Shown here piece by piece: positions 7,059 through 41,165 of a stretch of DNA of 64,000 nt. The notes under the pieces were generated by a model. The model saw only the letters and a list, made by a program, of their open reading frames with translations. It did no database searches and was not told the DNA's origin. Within the stretch, counting starts at the first letter, position 1, and each line of letters starts with the position of its first letter. The translations under genes were made by a program, and so were the position numbers. Source of the DNA: an uncultured virus (IMG/VR IMGVR_UViG_3300003267_000135) (lineage: Duplodnaviria; Heunggongvirae; Uroviricota; Caudoviricetes); the IMG/VR virus record IMGVR_UViG_3300003267_000135, positions 1-64,000 of that record; one strand, written 5' to 3'.

Positions 7059-7441
7059 GCGGTGGCAGCTTCGATTTCCTTGGCGCGCTTCAACAACTCG
7101 GCGGCTTCGTCGCGTAGCCGCTTGGCCTTGATCTTCCGACCGTCGGCAATCGCGGTCTCAATCTTCACGATGAGCGCGGCAACCCTCTCGGTTACTTCGC
7201 TGACGGTTCGGCCATCCATGTAAATCGTATCAGCAACCTGCGGCGTGCTGTTTTTGTTCGATTCGTAACCGCCGACAAACACGCGCACGGAAACCTGATC
7301 AACGTAGGGCGAGAAATCTACGCACACGTCTGCCACATCGCGCGGCGTTCCGATGGCGAGTCCTGCAAGCTGGAGTAGCGCCGTCTTCACCTCGAATGGG
7401 TAAGGGCGATCCGTGATTTTGGCTTCGGGTGCTGTGCTCAT
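7055..7441 (-). CDS. Hypothetical protein
   Basis: ATGA-coupled ORF. Confidence 0.6.
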   Translation of the reverse strand: MSTAPEAKITDRPYPFEVKTALLQLAGLAIGTPRDVADVCVDFSPYVDQVSVRVFVGGYESNKNSTPQVADTIYMDGRTVSEVTERVAALIVKIETAIADGRKIKAKRLRDEAAELLKRAKEIEAATA

Positions 7442-8259
7442 GTCTGGAATTGGTTTTCGGCTGGCAAGTGCGCGATGTGGCGTGGGTCTATATCGGGATC
7501 GACCTCCCGCAAAAGTTTCGTCAGCTCGCTCGCCAGTTTCACCTCTATGGGCAGATACCAGCGATCAGGATCGTTCTCCTCAATGGCGCGAGTGCGGACG
7601 CCCATCGCCAAACGGGCAATCACAGCACCGAGCGAATCAATCGGCATCCGGTATCCGCGCTGATAATACTTGAGCACGCGGAGCATTGAGCCGCCTGCGT
7701 CCTCGTTGCGAATCGGCATCGTGTAAACGAGCCGCTTCGCCGCTAGATCGGAGTAGAACCGGCTGTCGCAAATGGAGTGCCAGCCCGATCGCTCGTGATC
7801 TACCAGTGGCGTCAACGTGTCGTCGCCACTTGCGGGATCAATCTCGTGCGGCGCTTTGTAAACATTCTCCCACCAAAACGCAGCCCGCGAGATCGTGAAG
7901 TCGAATGACATGATAGCATCACGCGGCCCCGTGAACGTCCATCGGTGGATGATCTGAATCGGCGTCTGATACTTCGTGATCGTGTAAGCGTTATCCGATT
8001 CGTGGATGAACTTCCGGTTTTCGGATGCAATGGACAACTCAACGACGTATTCGGCCACCTCGCGGGCTTTGGCTTTCGATGTGGTGAAACAGTCGATGTC
8101 GTTCACCAACTCACCAGCCACACACGCGCGGACGTAGCCGCCAGCTACGATCAGCTCACAACCAAACTTCTTGCACGCGGCAAGAAGCATGACAGGAGCA
8201 CGGCGCAACGCCTGTTGCAGATCGTGACGAGCTAACGGCTGTGTTGCTGTTTCGACCAT
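7438..8259 (-). CDS. Nucleotidyltransferase of the CCA-adding/poly(A) polymerase head-domain type
   Basis: AGGYVR...G...NDID.F (motif A) and SFDFTIS (RRDFTIN-like); start placed at ATG 8259 because the TTG at 8310 lies inside the repeated regulatory motif. Confidence 0.7.
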   Translation of the reverse strand: MVETATQPLARHDLQQALRRAPVMLLAACKKFGCELIVAGGYVRACVAGELVNDIDCFTTSKAKAREVAEYVVELSIASENRKFIHESDNAYTITKYQTPIQIIHRWTFTGPRDAIMSFDFTISRAAFWWENVYKAPHEIDPASGDDTLTPLVDHERSGWHSICDSRFYSDLAAKRLVYTMPIRNEDAGGSMLRVLKYYQRGYRMPIDSLGAVIARLAMGVRTRAIEENDPDRWYLPIEVKLASELTKLLREVDPDIDPRHIAHLPAENQFQT

Positions 8260-8300
8260 CTGGAAAGTTTGACCGCCAGCACCAAAATCACTCGGGCGAG

Positions 8301-8318
8301 CTTGCGTCAAGCAAAAGT
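8301..8318 (-). promoter_or_regulatory. Repeated 18-bp motif ACTTTTGCTTGACGCAAG, copy 1
   Basis: Exact copy, upstream of the nucleotidyltransferase gene. Confidence 0.75.
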
Positions 8319-8909
8319 GAAATGATTTTTAGCAGCAGCTAGCGCCAGCCGGTCACATCGCTCATTATCCAAGTCGCCCGCGTGTCCTTTCACCCACAAG
8401 ATCGTCACGCGATGCTGGCCGGTCAGCCTGCGATAATCCGTAATTAGATTTCGGATATGCGCGTATTTCGGATTCGTGAAAAACTTCGGCTTGTTGCATA
8501 GCCGACACCATGCGGCAGCGGTCTTGCTGTCAGTGCGAATGGTCACAGCGCATGGCGATCTCAGCACGCGCAATCCTTCAACGATGGCGCGAAATTCAGC
8601 GGCGTTATTTGTTGCCCAAGGTTCGGACCCGCTTAGCTCACGCACGGCACTTCCAAAGCGAAGAATGCAAGCCCATCCTGCGGGACCGGGATTACTTCTG
8701 GGACAGCTTCCGTCTGTCGTTAATGTTACCGCTTTTAGTCCATGCGAGGCATCGCCGAGCAATGAGAGTAGTTCGTTTCGGTTCCGGGTTAGTCGCGAGC
8801 ACACTTCATCCCCACTGTGGAGGATGAAGGATGGAGAGCTATTCGCCCCGGACTCGGAAGCCTGCTTCGCATCTCCCGTCAAACCATGCTGGTTCTGCTC
8901 TGCGCCCAT
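8307..8909 (-). CDS. rnhA: Ribonuclease HI
   Basis: TDGSC..NPGPAGW, TNNAAE, TDS, WVKGHAG..NERCDRLA catalytic motifs. Confidence 0.92.
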   Translation of the reverse strand: MGAEQNQHGLTGDAKQASESGANSSPSFILHSGDEVCSRLTRNRNELLSLLGDASHGLKAVTLTTDGSCPRSNPGPAGWACILRFGSAVRELSGSEPWATNNAAEFRAIVEGLRVLRSPCAVTIRTDSKTAAAWCRLCNKPKFFTNPKYAHIRNLITDYRRLTGQHRVTILWVKGHAGDLDNERCDRLALAAAKNHFTFA

Positions 8910-9215
8910 GTTTTTTTATCGGGTTACGGACCGACAAGTTTTGACGGCATTCACCGTGGTTTGCAGTCCCACCGCGACATTAACCCCGTTCGGATGATAC
9001 GGGGGCCAGTTTCTACTTCTGGAGCACTCCAACCCTTCTCGGGTGAGTGACATTCCGGACTTATCCCGTCCCCGGCGAACGGCCCTCAAAGGCGAAACGA
9101 GGCATAGGAACGTTTCCGATACACTGGCAAGAAAAAACCCGCCGAGCCTTTGAGGGAACGCGACGGGTAAAAGTGCTGACACCTTTATTGCAGACATCAT
9201 CGGATGCAGATACGT

Positions 9216-9686
9216 TTATGTTGCGTCAAGCAAAAGTCGCTTCGATTTCTTCGCCATCTGAATCCGCGTGCTGATGCACATGGATTCCTCAATTGGCCAG
9301 TGTTCGCCCCGTGCGTGTTTCATCGGGACGCGAATGGTGACAATCCCACGCCGATCCGCGTGCTCGCGTATGCCCTTCATCATTTCCGTCTCGGCCAACC
9401 ATCCGCCAAACGGCAGCACAAACAGCACACTGCCGCGCGTGAGCCTGTCCGTCAGCCCTTCAGCCTGTCCGTTGTCCAATGCAAAGCAGTAAAATTGATC
9501 CGCGTAGTGCGTGCGAATGCTCCAGCTCCAAAGGAAACAGCCTACTTGATCGGGGCTGTATCCGATAACGCCTGACGGTTTGGGTAGCTTGCGCATCCAT
9601 TCGGGCCGATCCTTGCGCTCGTTTTTGCGGCAACCCTCTTTGATCGCAAAGTCGCCGTAGTGCTGACGCGGAAAGTGCAGGATCAT
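9216..9686 (-). CDS. Hypothetical protein
   Basis: Start MILHFP at 9686 by ATGA overlap. Confidence 0.55.
   Translation of the reverse strand: MILHFPRQHYGDFAIKEGCRKNERKDRPEWMRKLPKPSGVIGYSPDQVGCFLWSWSIRTHYADQFYCFALDNGQAEGLTDRLTRGSVLFVLPFGGWLAETEMMKGIREHADRRGIVTIRVPMKHARGEHWPIEESMCISTRIQMAKKSKRLLLDAT
9220..9237 (-). promoter_or_regulatory. Repeated 18-bp motif, copy 2 (ACTTTTGCTTGACGCAAC)
   Basis: 17/18 match; at the start of the long leader upstream of RNase H. Confidence 0.7.
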
Positions 9687-10165
9687 GGCTTGCCATTCAG
9701 CGCATCCAAGTGCCGATGCTGCGCAATCGCGATCACCGTTTCGGCCTGCATGTTTACCTCGATGGGGAAATGAGCGAAGATGATCCCGAGTTCTCGCTTT
9801 TGCGCCCGCACGGTGCATGGTGGCAATTCGATTACGGGATTGCCCTTCTCGCGCCAGAACTTGACCGGGCAGAAATCGAAAATCATTTCCCCATCTTCAC
9901 CGTCCGGCAAAACAAGCAACGGATGTGTGGGCGTTACGTTTTTAATGTCGTTCACCAGCAGAATCCGCGCGCATTCCGTGTCGTCCAATTTCCACGTCTT
10001 TTTGAAGTCAGCAAACTGGCGCTCATGCTTGGCGACTATCAGCAGCGGGCGACGAATGCGATCCAACCAGTCTGGCCGCGCCGGATTCTTTGTCCGCGTG
10101 ATCGGTCTTCCCTGCGGAACGTAGAGAGCCGGTAGCGCCTTCCCGTTGGTTTCAATCTCAGCCAT
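9683..10165 (-). CDS. Hypothetical protein
   Basis: ORF in leftward operon. Confidence 0.6.
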   Translation of the reverse strand: MAEIETNGKALPALYVPQGRPITRTKNPARPDWLDRIRRPLLIVAKHERQFADFKKTWKLDDTECARILLVNDIKNVTPTHPLLVLPDGEDGEMIFDFCPVKFWREKGNPVIELPPCTVRAQKRELGIIFAHFPIEVNMQAETVIAIAQHRHLDALNGKP

Positions 10166-10240
10166 TGTATTGCGAAAGTTATTACGCCGCTATGCGTTCG
10201 TTGTCGGCCTGTCGTGTTTCAGACAGCACACGGGCGAAAC

Positions 10241-10387
10241 TCACCGCTGCGCAAAGTGTGAAAGAATGCCCATGACAATTGAGCCAAGCCCGACACCGCC
10301 CAGCAGCGCGAGCGTGTAAATGACGAGTTGTTCGCGACGCGTTGCCGGTTCCGGCCCGCGGGGAATGGGGACGATCATGCGTTTCAT
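10241..10387 (-). CDS. Small membrane protein (48 aa)
   Basis: MKRMIVPIPRGPEPATRREQLVIYTLALLGGVGLGSIVMGILSHFAQR; one TM helix. Confidence 0.5.
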   Translation of the reverse strand: MKRMIVPIPRGPEPATRREQLVIYTLALLGGVGLGSIVMGILSHFAQR

Positions 10388-10411
10388 GGTCTCGGGTGAT
10401 AAAAAATGGTT

Positions 10412-10732
10412 TCACGCCTGCGGCTCTCTCATGACGATCTCGTTTCGGCGCACGTCCACGAGATGCCCCTTGCTGTTAGTGTAAATCTGCGGGAAGGCGT
10501 CGGGCCGCTTGCCGAGCAACCAAGGCAACACGTCGTTTGCAAATAGCAGCCTTGGCGGCGTCACGTCGTCGTCAAAAACCGTCGCGTTTTGGATTACCTT
10601 TGTGCGAGGCCGATAGATCGTCGCCTCCCCCTTGAACTCGCGAACCAATGCGAAGCCGCGATAGCAATGCACTTGATCGACCTCCAAGAAATTCCGCTTA
10701 CGCTGCCCGTTCGTTGTATAGAAGACTAGCAT
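10412..10732 (-). CDS. Unknown-family paralog 4
   Basis: MLVFY..CYRG..FDDDVTPPRL..FPQIYTNSKGHL..MREP; start overlaps upstream stop. Confidence 0.7.
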   Translation of the reverse strand: MLVFYTTNGQRKRNFLEVDQVHCYRGFALVREFKGEATIYRPRTKVIQNATVFDDDVTPPRLLFANDVLPWLLGKRPDAFPQIYTNSKGHLVDVRRNEIVMREPQA

Positions 10733-11142
10733 GGCTTCACCTCGCGCAGAGTTGCCGATGGTCCCGGCATCATTGGTGTTTTGGAATAGGAATCCGTTTC
10801 CCAAATGTCGCCGTGCTCCCCGATGTAAAACGCAGGAAACAACTGGTGCGTTCTCCGCGCATCGTGGAATGAAAAGTCCACGCCGCGAGCACGATATTTC
10901 AACGTTGGTGGCGTTGTGTTTGGATTGAAGACGGCAAAGGTGAGTGCCGGTTGTTTGTTGCCAAGCCATTCCCGCAACTCGTCCTGCGTGCCGCGAAATG
11001 AATTGAGCACGTCAAACGACGGCAGAATCTTTCCGCCAGCCCCGCTTAGGTCCCTAAAGTAGAAAATCAACATCGCTTCCGGTCGCATCGGCTGACCGTT
11101 TTGCACGGCAATCGCGTCCTGTTCAGAATGGAAAACGTTCAT
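10726..11142 (-). CDS. Unknown-family paralog 3
   Basis: MLIFY..SFRG..FNPNTTPPTL..FPAFYIGEHGDI..MPGP. Confidence 0.7.
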   Translation of the reverse strand: MNVFHSEQDAIAVQNGQPMRPEAMLIFYFRDLSGAGGKILPSFDVLNSFRGTQDELREWLGNKQPALTFAVFNPNTTPPTLKYRARGVDFSFHDARRTHQLFPAFYIGEHGDIWETDSYSKTPMMPGPSATLREVKPC

Positions 11143-11480
11143 GCGTGTTTCGGGCCTTGCATGATCACTTCGCCCTTCGCATTCACGATGTCGCCGGCAA
11201 AACTAATATAGGATTGCGGCAGTTGCGCTTTCAGCTTTCGCAAAAACTTCACCTCGTAATCTTCGCGGATCAATCGTGGCGGTGTCGTGTTGTCATCAAA
11301 CAGAGTGCATTTTTTTCGCCTGCAAAACACACTGCCATCCTCGCGCAATAGGTGGACTTGATTTCCAACAAGCGAAACGCCGCCCGTGTGGCAATGGGCG
11401 CGAGGTCTGCCACTATACCGCTCGCGGCGATGGCGCACGCGTGCTGATGTTTCCTCGTAGGTTAGAAAAAAAACAATCAT
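11139..11480 (-). CDS. Unknown-family paralog 2
   Basis: MIVFF..CHTG..FDDNTTPPRL..LPQSYISFAGDI..MQGP. Confidence 0.7.
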   Translation of the reverse strand: MIVFFLTYEETSARVRHRRERYSGRPRAHCHTGGVSLVGNQVHLLREDGSVFCRRKKCTLFDDNTTPPRLIREDYEVKFLRKLKAQLPQSYISFAGDIVNAKGEVIMQGPKHA

Positions 11481-11485
11481 CGGAA

Positions 11486-11884
11486 TCAGAACGGCAGATC
11501 AATTGCCTGTTGAAACTCGTCTTCCTTCAGCTCGTTCCACTCCGGACCCATCAGCACGAGTGTTAGCTTTTCATCGGTGCGCCGGATGTTGCCGTGTCCA
11601 TCAATATAGGTTGGCGGCAAGTGCTCGCGAGCTGTTCCGCCTGAAAACAACGTCGCCTTGGTAAGCGCCTCAACATTGCCCGTCAATCCACCAAACGGGG
11701 TGACGAGTTGCGGCGGTTGCGAGCGTTGATCGTCAAACGCAATGAAGTCCGTTAGAACCGAGCGCCGTCCGTTGCACGGGTAAATATGCAATGCGAGGTT
11801 CCGCAATTTCGCGCGGCCCTTGTAGCAGCGCCAGACATAATGCCCGTAGTCCTGCCGCTTGTGATGACGCCAGAAAACGATCAC
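11486..11884 (-). CDS. Unknown-family paralog 1
   Basis: MIVFW..CYKG..FDDQRSQPPQL..LPPTYIDGHGNI..MGP; AAGGA RBS before GTG. Confidence 0.7.
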   Translation of the reverse strand: MIVFWRHHKRQDYGHYVWRCYKGRAKLRNLALHIYPCNGRRSVLTDFIAFDDQRSQPPQLVTPFGGLTGNVEALTKATLFSGGTAREHLPPTYIDGHGNIRRTDEKLTLVLMGPEWNELKEDEFQQAIDLPF

Positions 11885-11912
11885 GTCGATCCTTTCGCTG
11901 ACTGTTCCGAAG

Positions 11913-12524
11913 TTATTCGTGCATTGAGGCTTTGGGCATTAATGCGCGTTCCAGCGGCAAACGTTTAAGCCGAGCGTGCAATCCGCCTGCGCTCCATCCA
12001 AGCAAACGCGCCCACTGTGAAAGCGTCCGCGTTTCGCCGTCGAAAGTGATTCGCCTGTTCTGTCGTGTGTTTACTCCCTGCTCTTGAGGCGTTGCCCACC
12101 GGCAATTTTGCTTGTCGTAATTTCCATTCACGTTGCGCCTTTCAAGCGTCTTGCCCGCTGGGGCGTTGCCCATATCGGCGAGGAAATTCGCAAACTTGCG
12201 CCAGCGATCACAGACGCAGATTCCGCGACCACCGTAAGCCGGCCACTTCTCATTTTTCGGGTTTGTGCATCGCTGGAGCATTGCGGCCCATGAACCATAG
12301 GTGCGCGTCCACCGTCCCGACGTGTGCCCATGGGTGAAATTAGCCGGACCGTTTATCCCCTGCCGATTCAGACAGCCGCAGCTTTTAACCTCACCGCTTC
12401 GTAGATATTTGCCCATTCTGATTACTTCCTTCCCGCAGTCACATCGGCACTTCCACATTGCGCGCTTATTGACCGTCGGGGCCGGCTCGATCACGACGAG
12501 CCGGCCTGATCGGAATCCTAGCAT
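11913..12524 (-). CDS. HNH homing endonuclease (phage CxCDCG/YGGRGI type)
   Basis: WKCRCDCG..SCGC..W..M..RC..YGGRGICVC.RW..F..F..DMG..TLER.NVNGNY...NCRWAT. Confidence 0.88.
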   Translation of the reverse strand: MLGFRSGRLVVIEPAPTVNKRAMWKCRCDCGKEVIRMGKYLRSGEVKSCGCLNRQGINGPANFTHGHTSGRWTRTYGSWAAMLQRCTNPKNEKWPAYGGRGICVCDRWRKFANFLADMGNAPAGKTLERRNVNGNYDKQNCRWATPQEQGVNTRQNRRITFDGETRTLSQWARLLGWSAGGLHARLKRLPLERALMPKASMHE

Positions 12525-13765
12525 TCCACAACGATTACGCGCCCAAATGGGGGCGGTTGGTAGGTTGGCGTCACACATAACCATAGGGTTGCGAAGTCGG
12601 GCGGTTCGCTCGCGTGGGAACCCGCCAAATCGGTCAGGTAAATAAGCCCCGCGATCCGCTCGCCTTGCTCAATCATCTCCGCAACCCGAGCGAAGACACA
12701 AGCAAAATCAGTTCCGCCTCCGCCTTTTGCCTCGCGCGGAACGACTTCACCGGGTTCTATCATGTGCTCGGCATGGATCGCCGCGTCGCAGTCCATGACG
12801 ATCGCCCGGCAGTTGCTTTCTGCCATGCAGGACTCGATTAGGCCGTTGAACTCGGCGATCACCTCGTCGCCGATGCTGCCGGACGTGTCGCGCACTGCCA
12901 CGATTAACCCCGTCTCGTCTTGCCGCTTGCGCGGGTAGATCACGGGTTGCCAAGCGTGCCGACGCGCGGACCGGCTCCAATCGTTGCGTGAACTGATTCG
13001 TTCTTTCACGAAGTCGGCCATCTCGCGACGCCAATCGACTTTCTGGTTGAGCGTGCGATCGATGATCCGTTGCAAGTCAGCCGGGCAATTGCCCTGTCCG
13101 AGTGCCTTTGCCGCTTGCGCCGCTTGAATCACGCGCTCTTTCCATTGGTCCTCAAGCGACTCATTAAGGGCGTTTCCATGCTCATTCTGCGGGTTTTGAC
13201 CGTTGGGGGGTGTCTTGGGCTGTCCTTTGCCGTTATCGGGCTGTTTACCGCCCTTTCCCGGCTCGCCTTGGCCCTCGCCATCGGGAGCGGGCTTGCAGAA
13301 GTCGCCGCAGGCAGACCCTTGGCCTTGTCCGTTGCCGTTGCCGCCCTTGGGTGGCGTTGGCGGAATGCGGTTGAGAATTTCTTCCTCTGCGAGCCCATCG
13401 AATGCGGGATTGAGCAAACCGCCCGCAGGCATTTTCAGCCCCGGCAGTTTCGAGAGCGTCGCGTTGATCGCGTAGTCGCCGGCCATGTTCCCGCGTTCGT
13501 CCGGCGGCAAGCGCCACAGATGACCATGCGCGGGGTGCATCGTTTCATGCAGGAGAACGAAGCGCGTTTCCTCGTCACAAAGTTTCGCGAGGAAGTCGCG
13601 ATCCCAGAAAATCCGCTTGCCGTCGGTGCAAGCGGTTTTCCCGTGCGGATTGCCCAGCACGTCTTGCAGGCCCATGCAGAGCGAACCGTAGAAAGGCGCA
13701 TTGCTGAGAGCCCACCACCGCGCGCGCTCGATCTTGAGCGTCAGAGCGTTGTCTTGCGCGCTCAT
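12518..13765 (-). CDS. DUF2201-like metallopeptidase + vWA domain protein
   Basis: TACTDG, LLHETMH (HExxH), DYAIN, DTSGS (MIDAS), GGGGTDF, YLTD. Confidence 0.88.
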   Translation of the reverse strand: MSAQDNALTLKIERARWWALSNAPFYGSLCMGLQDVLGNPHGKTACTDGKRIFWDRDFLAKLCDEETRFVLLHETMHPAHGHLWRLPPDERGNMAGDYAINATLSKLPGLKMPAGGLLNPAFDGLAEEEILNRIPPTPPKGGNGNGQGQGSACGDFCKPAPDGEGQGEPGKGGKQPDNGKGQPKTPPNGQNPQNEHGNALNESLEDQWKERVIQAAQAAKALGQGNCPADLQRIIDRTLNQKVDWRREMADFVKERISSRNDWSRSARRHAWQPVIYPRKRQDETGLIVAVRDTSGSIGDEVIAEFNGLIESCMAESNCRAIVMDCDAAIHAEHMIEPGEVVPREAKGGGGTDFACVFARVAEMIEQGERIAGLIYLTDLAGSHASEPPDFATLWLCVTPTYQPPPFGRVIVVEC

Positions 13766-13998
13766 TTCGCACCTCCTGTCCACTCGGTTTCAACTGTGGC
13801 TTTCGCCATGGTTTCGGCCAACGCTTCGATCTGGCGACGGACGCCGCGCAGCTTGTTGCCCGCGATCGTTTGCTTCCGCTCCCAGCGTTGCCGCTCAGCC
13901 TGCAACGCATGGAGCTTGCCGAGGTTGGTTTTCGCCAACCGGCGCTTGCTGTCGCGAATCAGGCGCGACGCGGCTTTGTCTTCAGTGGTCGTCGGCAT
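13762..13998 (-). CDS. Small coiled-coil hypothetical protein
   Basis: Coupled ORF within the module. Confidence 0.6.
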   Translation of the reverse strand: MPTTTEDKAASRLIRDSKRRLAKTNLGKLHALQAERQRWERKQTIAGNKLRGVRRQIEALAETMAKATVETEWTGGAK

Positions 13999-14001
13999 GG
14001 G

Positions 14002-14802
14002 TTATTGCGCTCCCAACGCGGCGAGGATGGAGGTTGCCCGGTTCGCCGCATCACGGCGCGCGGATTTGCTCTCGCGGATCATGTCCGCGTCCAGCTTCGC
14101 CAACTCTGCGGCTTGTTGCGCGGCTTGTGCGACCGCAACCGACTCGCCGAAATTGAAGTCCGGCACGAGCGGCAACAGCTCGGCGAGGTTGGAAAAGAGC
14201 GAATCGTAAATCTTCGGCTTTTCCTTCGCGCAGTTCTCGGCGATGCGTTGCAGGCAGTCCGTCAGCCGCTCGCGCAACTCGTCCTCAGCCGCACGCGCCG
14301 ACTCAGTGATCCAGTCGGCCCACGATCCATCGGTCGGGCAGGCCATATAGCGCGACGTAAACAGGAACTTGCCGCCGATAACGGAACGATCCGGCCATTG
14401 CCGCGCATCGTAAAGCCCGTTGAGGCGAACCGGCGCGGTGCGCTTTTCGTCGTCGTATTCGCCGAGGAACTTCGCCACTAGCGCGCGGTGCTTCGCGCCG
14501 AACTCCTGCATTTTCGCGCTGTGTTCGAACTCGCGGCCAACTGGCAGCAACCGGAAACCGTCTTGCGCGGCGGGCAGCGTCAACTTGCGGTGCGCGTCGT
14601 ATGCCTCAGCGGTCAGGCAGTTGATCGCGCGGAGCGTTTCCGAGTTGGTGAGGCGAACGTGAACCTTCGCCGCGTCGCCCGTGTGGTGATCGGCGTTCAC
14701 CTTGTCTGTCTCTTTGCGGTTTAACCGCGTAGCGCGCCACGCGCCCGTATTCAACGCGGTCAGTTTGATCCGCGATGCGATTTTCGTGATGTCTGCTTGC
14801 AT
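14002..14802 (-). CDS. DUF3150-like protein
   Basis: W.A.RL, H.KLTLP..DG.RLLP, LNGLYD..WP motifs; typical position between AAA ATPase and vWA genes. Confidence 0.6.
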   Translation of the reverse strand: MQADITKIASRIKLTALNTGAWRATRLNRKETDKVNADHHTGDAAKVHVRLTNSETLRAINCLTAEAYDAHRKLTLPAAQDGFRLLPVGREFEHSAKMQEFGAKHRALVAKFLGEYDDEKRTAPVRLNGLYDARQWPDRSVIGGKFLFTSRYMACPTDGSWADWITESARAAEDELRERLTDCLQRIAENCAKEKPKIYDSLFSNLAELLPLVPDFNFGESVAVAQAAQQAAELAKLDADMIRESKSARRDAANRATSILAALGAQ

Positions 14803-14817
14803 GGACTTTTGACCCTT
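14800..14817 (-). promoter_or_regulatory. Conserved translation leader AAGGGTCAAAAnnCCATG, copy 3
   Basis: AAGGGTCAAAAGTCCATG. Confidence 0.8.
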
Positions 14818-14821
14818 TCAC

Positions 14822-14897
14822 TAATCGTTTTTGAGTGCGTGTCTGGACTCGTCAGCGTGCGCGATTACGCACGGACCGGCTTGCGCCGGTTTCGTCC
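14822..14897 (-). ncRNA. Hammerhead ribozyme, type II, with loop-I pseudoknot
   Basis: Minus strand GGAC-GAA-ACCGGC(GCAA)GCCGGU-C-CGUGCG(UAAUCG)CGCACG-CUGACGA-GUCC; downstream CGAUUA is complementary to loop UAAUCG; GUC cleavage predicted between 14874 and 14873. Confidence 0.93.
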
Positions 14898-15953
14898 TCA
14901 CTTCGCCGAACTCGTCGCAAATAGCTCTTGGTTCTTCTGCCACCACTTGCACCACTCACGATTGCCGCTCAGCTTAGCGCCAAGTTTCCGATAGGCGTCG
15001 CGGCCAGCGAGCGCGCCAAAGACGCGCGGCATCCGGTCAATATACTGGCAGAACGCGCCCGCGTGTTTGTCCGTCACTGCCGCGGACAGCATACCTGCGG
15101 CGAGATACAGACTCGCCGGATCGTCTTGCGCCGGCACGGGTGCGCCCATCGGGTCCATCCAGACTTGCTCGGGAGTCGGCAGCTTTTCCGCGAGTCGCGC
15201 ATACGCCATAAACTCAGCCGCAGCGGGTTTGCCGATGGCCGCTCCGACGGTGGACAGGTCAGCCAAACCAGCCTTGAACACGCGGATCACCGTATGCCAC
15301 GAGCGGAAATCGGGCATCCGGATCGCCGGATCGGCGTGCGGCTTCCACTGGTACAGCGTCCGGCCTGTCGTGCTGCGATGCCACGCGACGATCGCCGGAT
15401 CGGCATCCTGATCGAATGCCCAATCGCACCACGAATCGATCTCGTCTTTCCATGAGCGGAGAAGCGTCGCGCCGTCGGGTTTTTCCTCCTGTCCGGGTGT
15501 CGCGATGGCGAAGGAAAAGTGAAACTCGGAACGCAGCGCCTCATGCAGCGAATTAACGCCGGTTTTGTCGCCGGGCCGATTGGTTGCCGCCCAAATGGTG
15601 ACGTAGGGGTGACGGTAAAACGGACCGCCGCGAGTCACGAGACCCTTGAGCGCCGCTTGAACGTCGGTCGGAGCGTTGCCGAGGTCATCCCAGAGCCACA
15701 GCGTCCGCTTTTTGGTCTCTTGTAGCCGCTTGAACTGTTCCAAGGGCAGCAAACGGCAAACGCCGTTCGCCATGTCCGGCGCGAACACGCCGCCGAAGTC
15801 CGTCCGCTCTTGAATGCCGGGAGTACTCACCTCGAACTCGAAACCGTGCGCGCGGGCGCAGTCCTCGATCCGGGACGTTTTGCCGAGTGCGGGCGGTCCA
15901 ACGAGCAACACGCGTTCGCCGGCCTGCATGAGTTGATTGAGTCTGTCTTGCAT
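14898..15953 (-). CDS. MoxR-like AAA+ ATPase
   Basis: GPPALGKT Walker A, LWLWDD Walker B, VQAAL, AATNR sensor. Confidence 0.85.
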   Translation of the reverse strand: MQDRLNQLMQAGERVLLVGPPALGKTSRIEDCARAHGFEFEVSTPGIQERTDFGGVFAPDMANGVCRLLPLEQFKRLQETKKRTLWLWDDLGNAPTDVQAALKGLVTRGGPFYRHPYVTIWAATNRPGDKTGVNSLHEALRSEFHFSFAIATPGQEEKPDGATLLRSWKDEIDSWCDWAFDQDADPAIVAWHRSTTGRTLYQWKPHADPAIRMPDFRSWHTVIRVFKAGLADLSTVGAAIGKPAAAEFMAYARLAEKLPTPEQVWMDPMGAPVPAQDDPASLYLAAGMLSAAVTDKHAGAFCQYIDRMPRVFGALAGRDAYRKLGAKLSGNREWCKWWQKNQELFATSSAK

Positions 15954-15968
15954 GGTTTTTTGACCCTT
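15951..15968 (-). promoter_or_regulatory. Conserved translation leader, copy 2
   Basis: AAGGGTCAAAAAACCATG. Confidence 0.8.
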
Positions 15969-16039
15969 CCTGATTTGGTTTTTGTTAAGCGGTAAACACC
16001 GCAACTTGCCCCCACTTTCGCAGGAGCAAGGCGCGAGGT

Positions 16040-16315
16040 TTAGCACCGGGAAAAATCGGGATAGGTCATGCGGCGAACGTTTTTGATCGTGCCGCGATTG
16101 CGCCGGCTGGCTGTGGTGGGTGTCAGGGGTGCCCACTGCCACGCGCATTCTTCACACGCCGCCGTCAGAACATTTTTCGGCAGTGAATAATTGTCGTCAG
16201 CCGATTTCAACTCGAACGCGCCTGATTTCAACGCGGCTTCACCGTAAACGCGAATCATGCGCGCCGTCTTGCGTGACAGCTCGCGATATTTCGCGCGGAA
16301 TTGTGCCTTTGTCAT
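16040..16315 (-). CDS. Hypothetical protein, first gene of the leftward operon
   Basis: 91 aa; preceded by the conserved leader. Confidence 0.7.
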   Translation of the reverse strand: MTKAQFRAKYRELSRKTARMIRVYGEAALKSGAFELKSADDNYSLPKNVLTAACEECAWQWAPLTPTTASRRNRGTIKNVRRMTYPDFSRC

Positions 16316-16330
16316 GGAATTTTGACCCTT
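16313..16330 (-). promoter_or_regulatory. Conserved translation leader, copy 1
   Basis: AAGGGTCAAAATTCCATG. Confidence 0.8.
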
Positions 16331-16405
16331 GGTTTCCCTCTGCGTTGTTCCGGGCTTGGGACCGTATCGGAAACGTGATTACGTATCCGATGCCGCATTA
16401 CAACC
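16331..16405 (-). ncRNA. Twister ribozyme (P1 type with P3 stem)
   Basis: Minus strand GGUUG-UAA-UGCG-GC-[AUCGGA..UCCGAU]-A-CGG-UCCCAAGC-CCG-GAACAA-CGCA-GAGGGA-AACC: P1, P2, P3, P4 and both pseudoknots (UCCC/GGGA, GC/GC) can form; cleavage predicted between 16400 and 16399. Confidence 0.88.
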
Positions 16406-16574
16406 GCCCGGCATTCCCACGGGAAAGACCCGCTCTGCCGTAGAGGGGACGCTTGATCCGCTCCGTCATGTTCCTGCCGTGACCCAGAGCCTACTTGCCG
16501 CCGCTCAGCTCCTTTCGGGAACCCTGACCGGCCCTCACTCGTGACAACCTGAAAACACATTGTCAACACCGAAC

Positions 16575-16592
16575 CTTGCGCCATGCAAAAGA
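16575..16592 (-). promoter_or_regulatory. Variant of the repeated motif (TCTTTTGCATGGCGCAAG)
   Basis: Same variant core as 38117-38134; followed by TTGACA toward the leftward operon. Confidence 0.6.
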
Positions 16593-16704
16593 ACTCACGA
16601 GCGACGGACGCCCAGAAAACGGCACTGACTCGGTTTGAGTCAGCACCCAGAAAACCCAACTGACAGCGGAAACCGCGCTGTCCCGGCATCGGGACCAGCC
16701 CTTT

Positions 16705-17000
16705 TCGGACCGTCAGAAATCGGACCGTCAGATCAGATCAGTTTTCTCTTAGTCCGGCATCAGGTTTTCCCCTATGATCAGACTGTCCGACAACCTTGCG
16801 CATGGCGCAAGTCAGCCGCAAAACCGAGCTTGACACCCTCTTTTTCCAGACCCCACAACGCGCGCGCTTTCTTCGTCGGAGCGGTCCCACGACCGCGCAG
16901 ACTCTGACCGTAGCGGCAGCCAAGCGAGCAATGTCGAGCGCAGGACGACGCGCCGAGGTAAGCGACAGCGCACCGAGCATCCTCTCTTCGGACCGTCAGA
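16705..17000. repeat. 13-bp repeats TCGGACCGTCAGA
   Basis: Exact at 16705-16717, 16720-16732 and 16988-17000; inverted 11/13 copy at 16778-16790. Confidence 0.75.
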
Positions 17001-39821: not shown

Positions 39822-41165
39822 GTGAAGATAACCGCCCTGACCACTGCTTGCCACCGTCCCGAGGCGTGGGCGCTTGCCGAGAGCTACATGCGGCGGCAGA
39901 CCATGCAGCCGGTGCAGTGGTTAGTTTTGGACGACGACGAGCCCAAGACGGTCTGCACAATGGGACAGGAGTATTACCACTGGCCTGAGCTGGCCGGGCG
40001 CGGGAGCCTGACCCAAAAATTCCGACGCGCACTCGAAATGGATTTGGTAAAAGGCGATGCCATCGTAGTAGCTGAGAACGATGATTTTTACGCGCCCGAC
40101 TGGATCGAGTGGTGCGCCGAACAGCTCGTGACGCGCGATCTGGTGGGTGAAGGCCGCGCGCTTTATTACAACGTGCGTGAACGCTTTTGGTTTGAACATA
40201 GCAATTTGCAGCACGCGTCGCTTTGCCAGACCGCGATCCACCGTCGCGCATTCCCCGAACTGTTGAAGCAATGTCAGGACACGCTTTGCCCCTTTCTGGA
40301 TGTGCGACTCTGGCGCGCGATTCGGCAAAACAAACAGGTGTTTGACCCCTACCGTCCCGGCAATAAACGCCGCCTCGTGGGCATCAAGGGAATGCCGGGA
40401 CGCGTCGGCTACGGCGGTGGTCACGGTGCTCGCGACAGGTCTGCCGTCGATGATCATAGCCTCACGAAGCTGCGCGGGCTGATCGGCGAAACCGATGCCG
40501 CAGCGTATGAGCCGTTTTTCAATCCATCGCCCAAACCGCTTCCGACCGAGAAAAACCTGCACATCCAACAGCAACCCCTTCGAAAAATGATCACCAAATC
40601 TGAAGCTGGACGCGTTCACGGCCCCAATTGGATAAACTGGCTAGGGCATTTGCGCGGACAACCCGGCGTTGTCGGTTTGGAAATAGGAACGTTCGAAGGC
40701 GATTCCGCCGAGTTCCTTTGTGACAACGTATTCACGCATCCCGATTCGCAGTATCACTGCGTTGACCCGTTTACCGGCTCCGTGGAGCACCACGTCGGCG
40801 GTTTCAACGTTTCCAAGCTGGAGGAAACGGCGCGGCTCAAGCTCGCACGCTTCCCAAATATCGAAATCCACAAGGGTTATTCACAGGACGTTTTGCGCAC
40901 GCTCCCGAAAAACGCCTTCGATTTCATCTACGTGGACGGATCGCACACAACGCGCGACGTGTTGCGCGACGGCGTGTTGGCATTCGACCTTTTGAAGATC
41001 GGCGGCACAATCATCTTTGATGATGTGAAGTGGGCCGTTTTCCCGAACGAGCTGGATCGGCCAAAGCTGGGAATTGATTCCTTCGTGCGCTGCTATTCAG
41101 GCAAAATCGAGCTGCTGAAACCACACGGGGGTTGGCAACTCGCACTCAGGAAGACGAAGGAATGA
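39822..41165 (+). CDS. GT2-like glycosyltransferase fused to a class I SAM methyltransferase
   Basis: WLVLDD, ENDDFY; LEIGTFEGDS, CVDPF, FDFIYVDGSH, GGTIIFDD. Confidence 0.82.
   Translation: MKITALTTACHRPEAWALAESYMRRQTMQPVQWLVLDDDEPKTVCTMGQEYYHWPELAGRGSLTQKFRRALEMDLVKGDAIVVAENDDFYAPDWIEWCAEQLVTRDLVGEGRALYYNVRERFWFEHSNLQHASLCQTAIHRRAFPELLKQCQDTLCPFLDVRLWRAIRQNKQVFDPYRPGNKRRLVGIKGMPGRVGYGGGHGARDRSAVDDHSLTKLRGLIGETDAAAYEPFFNPSPKPLPTEKNLHIQQQPLRKMITKSEAGRVHGPNWINWLGHLRGQPGVVGLEIGTFEGDSAEFLCDNVFTHPDSQYHCVDPFTGSVEHHVGGFNVSKLEETARLKLARFPNIEIHKGYSQDVLRTLPKNAFDFIYVDGSHTTRDVLRDGVLAFDLLKIGGTIIFDDVKWAVFPNELDRPKLGIDSFVRCYSGKIELLKPHGGWQLALRKTKE

Follow-up and report, generated by a model that had tools for sequence, protein, structure and literature searches.

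Introduction

Type II hammerhead ribozymes are found between prophage genes, with cleavage shown both in vitro and inside E. coli, and the splitting of polycistronic RNA was proposed as their role in 2011 (PMC3088659); a 2019 review still described the purpose of self-cleaving RNAs associated with phage genes as open (PMC6765202). Most type II hammerheads reported in PMC3088659 carry a pseudoknot that pairs loop I with the bases immediately after stem II and is strongly sensitive to spacing. Another described tertiary contact is a reverse-Hoogsteen pair that joins the 5′ U of loop 1 to the 3′ A of loop 2, with UN3YN hexaloops as the most frequent loop (PMC2632901), and a related rule states that a U lying 7 nt after the cut pairs with the A of GUGA (PMC9217987).

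Here we analyse a 64,000-nt stretch of DNA (hereafter, the window; positions 1 to 64,000 of IMG/VR record IMGVR_UViG_3300003267_000135, an uncultured Caudoviricetes virus), which is phage-like as judged by its PHROG matches and by relatives in viral contigs. On its minus strand, a type II hammerhead likely cuts the message of an AAA ATPase, DUF3150-like and vWA-like gene module 24 bases past the UGA of the ATPase gene; a U·A contact between loop I and the last base of that stop codon probably stabilises the active fold. The element type is already well known, and the window copy is an ordinary further example; it also provides a clean, single-ribozyme test case for the question of why phages put self-cleaving RNAs between genes.

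A type II hammerhead motif follows the ATPase stop codon

Motif reading, a structural descriptor and a covariance model all place the hammerhead core at 14897-14845 (minus strand). Along that strand, it comprises the 3′ strand of stem II (GGAC, 14897-14894), the GAAA core segment (14893-14890), stem III (CCGGC, 14889-14885, and GCCGG, 14880-14876, plus the pair A15.1-U16.1) with its GCAA loop (14884-14881), the GUC triplet (14876-14874), stem I (CGUGCG, 14873-14868, and CGCACG, 14861-14856) closed by loop I (UAAUCG, 14867-14862), the CUGACGA core segment (14855-14849), and the 5′ strand of stem II (GUCC, 14848-14845). The core bases listed under CL00010 (C3 U4 G5 A6 N7 G8 A9, G12 A13 A14 A15, and U16 H17) are all found here, as are the core bases and junction pairs required by Perreault et al. 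(PMC3088659). Beside the core stand six Watson-Crick pairs in stem I, four in stem II, and five plus one in stem III, with no mismatch in either stems or core, and the loops close stems I and III while stem II is open, which is the type II permutation. The element is a type II hammerhead ribozyme motif, with self-cleavage predicted, in agreement with a sequence-only reading of the window that had described an intact core, three stems, and a GNRA loop. That reading had also placed the cut between 14874 and 14873, and the hammerhead consensus predicts the same site, 3′ of C17 (14874) and 24 nt past the ATPase stop codon. Its observation that the ribozyme starts directly after this stop codon is likewise correct, with UGA at 14900-14898 and the first ribozyme base at 14897 (+0).

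Immediately upstream, the flank GUGA (14901-14898, minus strand) consists of the last base of a Lys codon and the UGA stop. Downstream of the core, on the same strand, a 17-nt linker (14844-14828) contains ACUC, which is predicted either to pair with core GAGU or to extend stem II with the last codons of the ATPase gene. The linker leads into CGAUUA (14827-14822), a perfect complement of loop I and a possible pseudoknot partner for which comparative support is absent, as detailed below.

A descriptor covering the three hammerhead permutations matched the 66,462-nt genome only once, at this site, and 60 dinucleotide shuffles of the genome yielded one loose and no strict match. The Rfam model RF02276 (Hammerhead_II) gave the site 27.1 bits (E 0.0022 when 501 nt were searched), short of its gathering score of 37, and mis-seats stem II of the window ribozyme; an Rfam scan of the window returned nothing at gathering score. 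A covariance model derived from 58 further phage copies, with the window copy excluded, gave 66.3 bits (E about 1e-16). No second ribozyme was found by the descriptor in the whole genome, or by the 58-copy model or Rfam in the window. Among related loci, the ribozyme of locus L159 was missed by the descriptor, owing to a mismatch at 15.2-16.2, and was recovered by the covariance model. In isolation, the 76-mer that spans the hammerhead has it as its minimum-energy structure (z -2.2); the isolated fold reaches a probability of 0.81-0.84 under a nearest-neighbour model.

The ribozyme lies within a conserved three-gene module

The upstream AAA ATPase gene (351 aa; 14898-15953, minus strand) is read from an ATG at 15953, within a listed ORF that opens at 16148, and matches phrog_1297 (E 1.8e-35); its homologs carry PF00004/PF07728, and a Pfam search with the window protein itself gave no match. 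The DUF3150-like gene (266 aa; 14002-14802, minus strand) starts 42 bases past stem II. PF11348 was detected in 5 of 44 aligned homologs (best E 1.5e-6), with no PF11348 match for the window protein of its own, and a literature search on DUF3150 returned nothing relevant. A 78-aa ORF follows, and then the third module member, a DUF2201 metallopeptidase/vWA-like gene (12518-13783, minus strand; PF13203, PF09967), a homolog of which lies downstream in all 71 related loci with enough flank. The module as a whole (12518-15953) is kept in 71/71 of these loci. The run of minus-strand genes extends over 7438-12584, where it encodes an HNH endonuclease, several unknown ORFs, an RNase H, and a nucleotidyltransferase-like gene.

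A ribosome-site-like motif, AAGGGUCAA, is located at 14809-14817 (minus strand) and recurs ahead of three consecutive genes (16330, 15968, and 14817), with one further match at 40350. The ATPase through the vWA gene would be carried on one transcript, given the spacing, the lack of a terminator-like site between the ATPase and the downstream gene, and the leader motif shared by three consecutive genes. No sigma-70-like promoter was found in 11800-17000.

A loop U and a flanking A are conserved together

Two comparison sets were assembled from viral contigs. A first pattern scan, covering 22 of 64 parts of the contigs, recovered at least 143 loci (62 of 143 with short flanks) and 168 distinct ribozymes including that of the window. 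Without the window copy and redundant sequences, 146 of these remained, drawn from 112 loci that overlap in part. A second scan, with the UAAUCG loop fixed and stem II left free, gave 18 matches (13 distinct, two of them shared with the first set). Both sets are pattern-selected and hold several sequences per contig, and the statistics drawn from them ignore kinship. Pair counts on A3 were high but biased by row selection, and were given little weight.

In the first set, 140 of the 146 ribozymes have both U(+7), counted from the cut, and A(-1), the base that precedes stem II, whereas six have neither and no case is discordant; the six exceptions have a different stem I geometry. Stem I and its loop together span 17 or 18 nt in 139/146, and the UN3YN pattern fits 35 of 39 hexaloops. 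All 18 members of the second set have A(-1), and 17 of them have a fully paired stem II, in six sequence versions. The window conforms to this pattern: loop I is a UN3YN hexaloop whose first base, U14867, lies at +7 from the predicted cut, and the GUGA flank ends in A14898, its likely partner. The loop features described by Dufour et al., namely UNmYN in loop 1 and, on the side of loop 2, a 3′ A, are found here as UAAUCG and A14898. The tertiary contact is therefore probably a reverse-Hoogsteen pair U14867·A14898, in which the A is the third base of the UGA stop codon. A loop U that travels with a flanking A, the latter often within a stop codon, explains why members of this subgroup score below the Rfam threshold. 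The literature searched contained no account of a stop codon supplying the contact A, and the supplement to Perreault 2011 may already show the subgroup.

The ATPase-downstream slot holds exchangeable RNA elements

Searches for viral-contig loci with single proteins returned nothing, and loci were retrieved through alignments instead. Among 98 related loci and the window, 56 distinct junctions show both gene ends. Sorted by eye, these include three intact hammerheads (the window, L159, and L187), one half-deleted hammerhead (L228), 16 and three junctions with two recurring hairpin motifs, 14 with other hairpins, 14 short spacers, four inserted genes, and one other. The L187 junction carries a classic pseudoknotted hammerhead (42.8 bits). 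On a tree of 52 of these junctions (four short fragments were left out), the four hammerhead rows are scattered over four separate places, and the three rows nearest to the window lack a hammerhead at the junction. Several relatives have a hammerhead on the upstream side of the ATPase gene instead. The slot evidently gains and loses RNA cassettes, since hammerheads are patchy, scattered on the tree, and sometimes found upstream of the ATPase. Because an intact hammerhead occupies only 3 of 56 junctions and the nearest sampled relatives are without one, the module does not need the ribozyme.

At L228:3921-3960, the 5′ half of a hammerhead sits flush with the ATPase UAA and the 3′ half is gone, leaving a decayed cassette. 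The more frequent of the two hairpin motifs, with a GAGA-CU-CAUC internal loop beneath a variable stem, occupies the same slot between ATPase stop and next start in 16 of 56 junctions by eye (e.g., L146:3905-3975 and L152:3903-3965, and in L153, L154, L157, L202, L204-L206, and L238). Its base is conserved and its upper stem covaries, and it had no Rfam match in the loci scanned. The other motif consists of invariant GAAGGGAGGCAGUC and GCAGCCAAAUCGG flanking a variable hairpin (L164:3895-3988, L191:1358-1452, and L192:3875-3976), and is a candidate structured RNA interchangeable with the hammerhead; it also had no Rfam match in the loci scanned, and a pattern search located it in one viral contig only.

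Tail pairing after the core

Pairing of the tail on the freed core strand amounts to 5.09 expected pairs in the group, compared with 4.40 in shuffled sequences and 4.21 in 89 control leaders; the window value is 4.79. Such back-pairing would favour product release. Across loci L001-L143 (e.g., L005, L085, and L125), tails with AUCAG accompany a CUGAUGA core and tails with GUCAG a CUGACGA core (21/0/1/6, Fisher p 2e-5, a value that ignores kinship). These core-matching tails form a 6-bp hairpin on the core, by which products might be freed or the anti-ribosome-site UCC hidden.

Alternative readings of the fold and its placement

The sequence-only reading had described a 6-bp pseudoknot between loop I and CGAUUA, and had suggested that folding might be coupled to upstream termination or downstream initiation. 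The match itself is present, with six of six positions complementary; it lies behind the 17-nt linker and ends 4 nt short of the AAGGG ribosome-site motif. A complement this complete has a chance of 0.75% by composition or 1.3% by loop-tail swapping, none of 146 foreign tails matches the UAAUCG loop at 6 bp, and a pseudoknot of this type is present in the majority of the type II hammerheads of PMC3088659, as well as in L187 at this same junction. Relatives, however, do not bear out the contact: CGATTA occurs within 60 nt in 0/18 ribozymes with a UAAUCG loop (GATTA in 1/18), loop-tail matches of at least 5 bp within 40 nt number 6 in 139, compared with 7.1 after permutation, and so show no excess, and tail matches to the whole loop were found in 0/39 hexaloops and 3/100 pentaloops against 4.8 expected. 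This comparison covers the two pattern-selected sets, among them ribozymes with the same loop, rather than the closest protein relatives (74-89% identity), and contigs of three sequencing runs yielded no relative covering the ribozyme. The nearest loop I complement starts 18 nt after stem II, whereas the spacing-sensitive pairing of PMC3088659 adjoins it; the duplex is modelled at only -3.5 kcal/mol, and GAUUAG resembles AAUCAG, found at the corresponding position of the ATPase leader. A full pseudoknot would need the same U as the U·A contact, so the two would exclude each other at that base. We accordingly regard it as quite unlikely that pairing of CGAUUA with loop I supplies the functional tertiary contact, or that it acts as a switch, in competition with the U·A pair and displaced when a 30S subunit binds at the next gene. 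On these comparative counts, the U·A contact is much better supported, and under it the 6-bp complement, rarer than 1 in 75, must be coincidence or accessory. The suggested link to downstream initiation also found no support, as modelled accessibility of the ribosome site is 0.61 uncut, 0.60 ribosome-covered, and 0.56 cut; a switch at this site was rejected because accessibility is essentially unchanged across the three states.

Placement at the stop codon bears on a possible link to termination. Of the 146 relatives, 79 have their first base at -1, 0, or +2 relative to a stop that closes an ORF of at least 50 aa; the contact A belongs to such a stop in 59, and in 20 more the stop lies 2 nt upstream. 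Stop triplets at these places end ORFs of at least 50 aa in 79 of 100 cases, compared with 12% of 8,876 background triplets (53/100 vs. 7% at an 80-aa cut-off), UAA or UGA make up 29 of 49 N-purine-A flanks, and the downstream leader has a median of 24 nt in the group. As the flush start is seen across much of the group, the placement in the window is typical. These figures might point to a translation-gated cutter, in which the frequency of cutting would depend on ribosome traffic, or on slow termination at the UGA, with ribosomes blocking the fold while on the stop and clearing a rival upstream helix in passing. A ribosome with UGA in its A site would cover A14898 and several bases beyond it, as well as stem II, which would make termination and the active fold mutually exclusive. 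The last codons of the window ATPase gene also form a predicted rival helix, which imposes a modelled folding penalty of 4.5 kcal/mol and is mostly preferred when 30-60 nt of upstream coding sequence are included, lowering the hammerhead probability to 0.001-0.35 under the nearest-neighbour model. However, 24% of 200 synonymous randomisations equal this helix, and selection for it was rejected on that count. The group even avoids such helices, as native upstream flanks cost a mean of 1.37 kcal/mol vs. 1.81 for shuffled ones (n = 146, p 6e-6), which is as expected for unregulated cutting. In addition, 67 of 146 relatives lie elsewhere than -1, 0, or +2, and the short time that a ribosome spends on the stop would, as estimated from typical rates, alter the rate by only about two-fold. 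The remaining RNA motifs of the slot lie similarly close, beginning within about 10 nt of the stop, so compaction explains the closeness. Genome compaction, together with reuse of the stop codon's A, is the most likely reason for the flush position. Gating of the window ribozyme by translation is therefore unlikely. It is similarly improbable that the large phage type II subgroup acts as termination sensors, holding the stop codon in the tertiary contact and cutting only without a ribosome on the stop; if true, upstream translation or release-factor supply would set operon processing. The link between loop U and flanking A gives a precise handle on whether translation gates cleavage. The predicted misfolding with native flanks, the patchy presence at the junction, and the half-deleted copy in L228 could alternatively indicate an inserted cassette, trapped by its flanks and inactive or neutral in the native setting. 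We consider this very improbable, given that every stem and core base is matched, that the isolated element folds readily in the model, that the model takes no account of Mg2+, tertiary contacts, the order of co-transcriptional folding, or ribosomes, and that 14 of 18 consensus hammerheads assayed in PMC3088659 were active.

Discussion

The most likely role of the hammerhead is the splitting of a polycistronic phage mRNA. In the mechanism that we propose, the RNA would fold while transcribed and cleavage would be largely constitutive. The upstream mRNA would keep its stop codon intact and gain the stem III hairpin at its new 3′ end, while the downstream mRNA would begin with a 5′-OH and carry the stem I hairpin, followed by a ribosome site of its own. 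As the cut pieces would be joined only by the 4-bp stem II, they would be expected to separate, and the genes would thereby acquire separate stability and translation. While terminating, a ribosome would unfold the ribozyme for a short time, which is probably a modest side effect.

The window element has the same permutation, with stem II open, as the type II hammerheads of RF02276 and Perreault 2011 (PMC3088659), and shares with them a perfect core, a location between phage genes on one strand, and the proposed role. It differs from the RF02276 consensus, which has a short stem II and an adjacent pseudoknot, in its 4-bp stem II, 6-bp stem I, and UN3YN loop, and from the clusters of Perreault 2011 in being single-copy in its genome. 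Loop I shares the UN3YN form with the viroid and satellite hammerheads CChMVd and sTRSV (Dufour et al., PMC2632901). Unlike these, the window ribozyme has no loop II, and the A of the contact, inferred here from co-conservation, is a dangling 5′ flank contributed by the upstream stop codon. The minimal U·A motif of PMC9217987 provides a close parallel, with U at +7, an A immediately 5′ of stem II (4 bp), the GUGA context, and a purine on the other flank. As in the phage ribozyme neighbourhoods described in PMC6765202, a self-cleaving RNA lies near phage genes in a position where such RNAs are interchangeable; the neighbours in the window are those of an AAA ATPase-DUF3150-DUF2201/vWA module.
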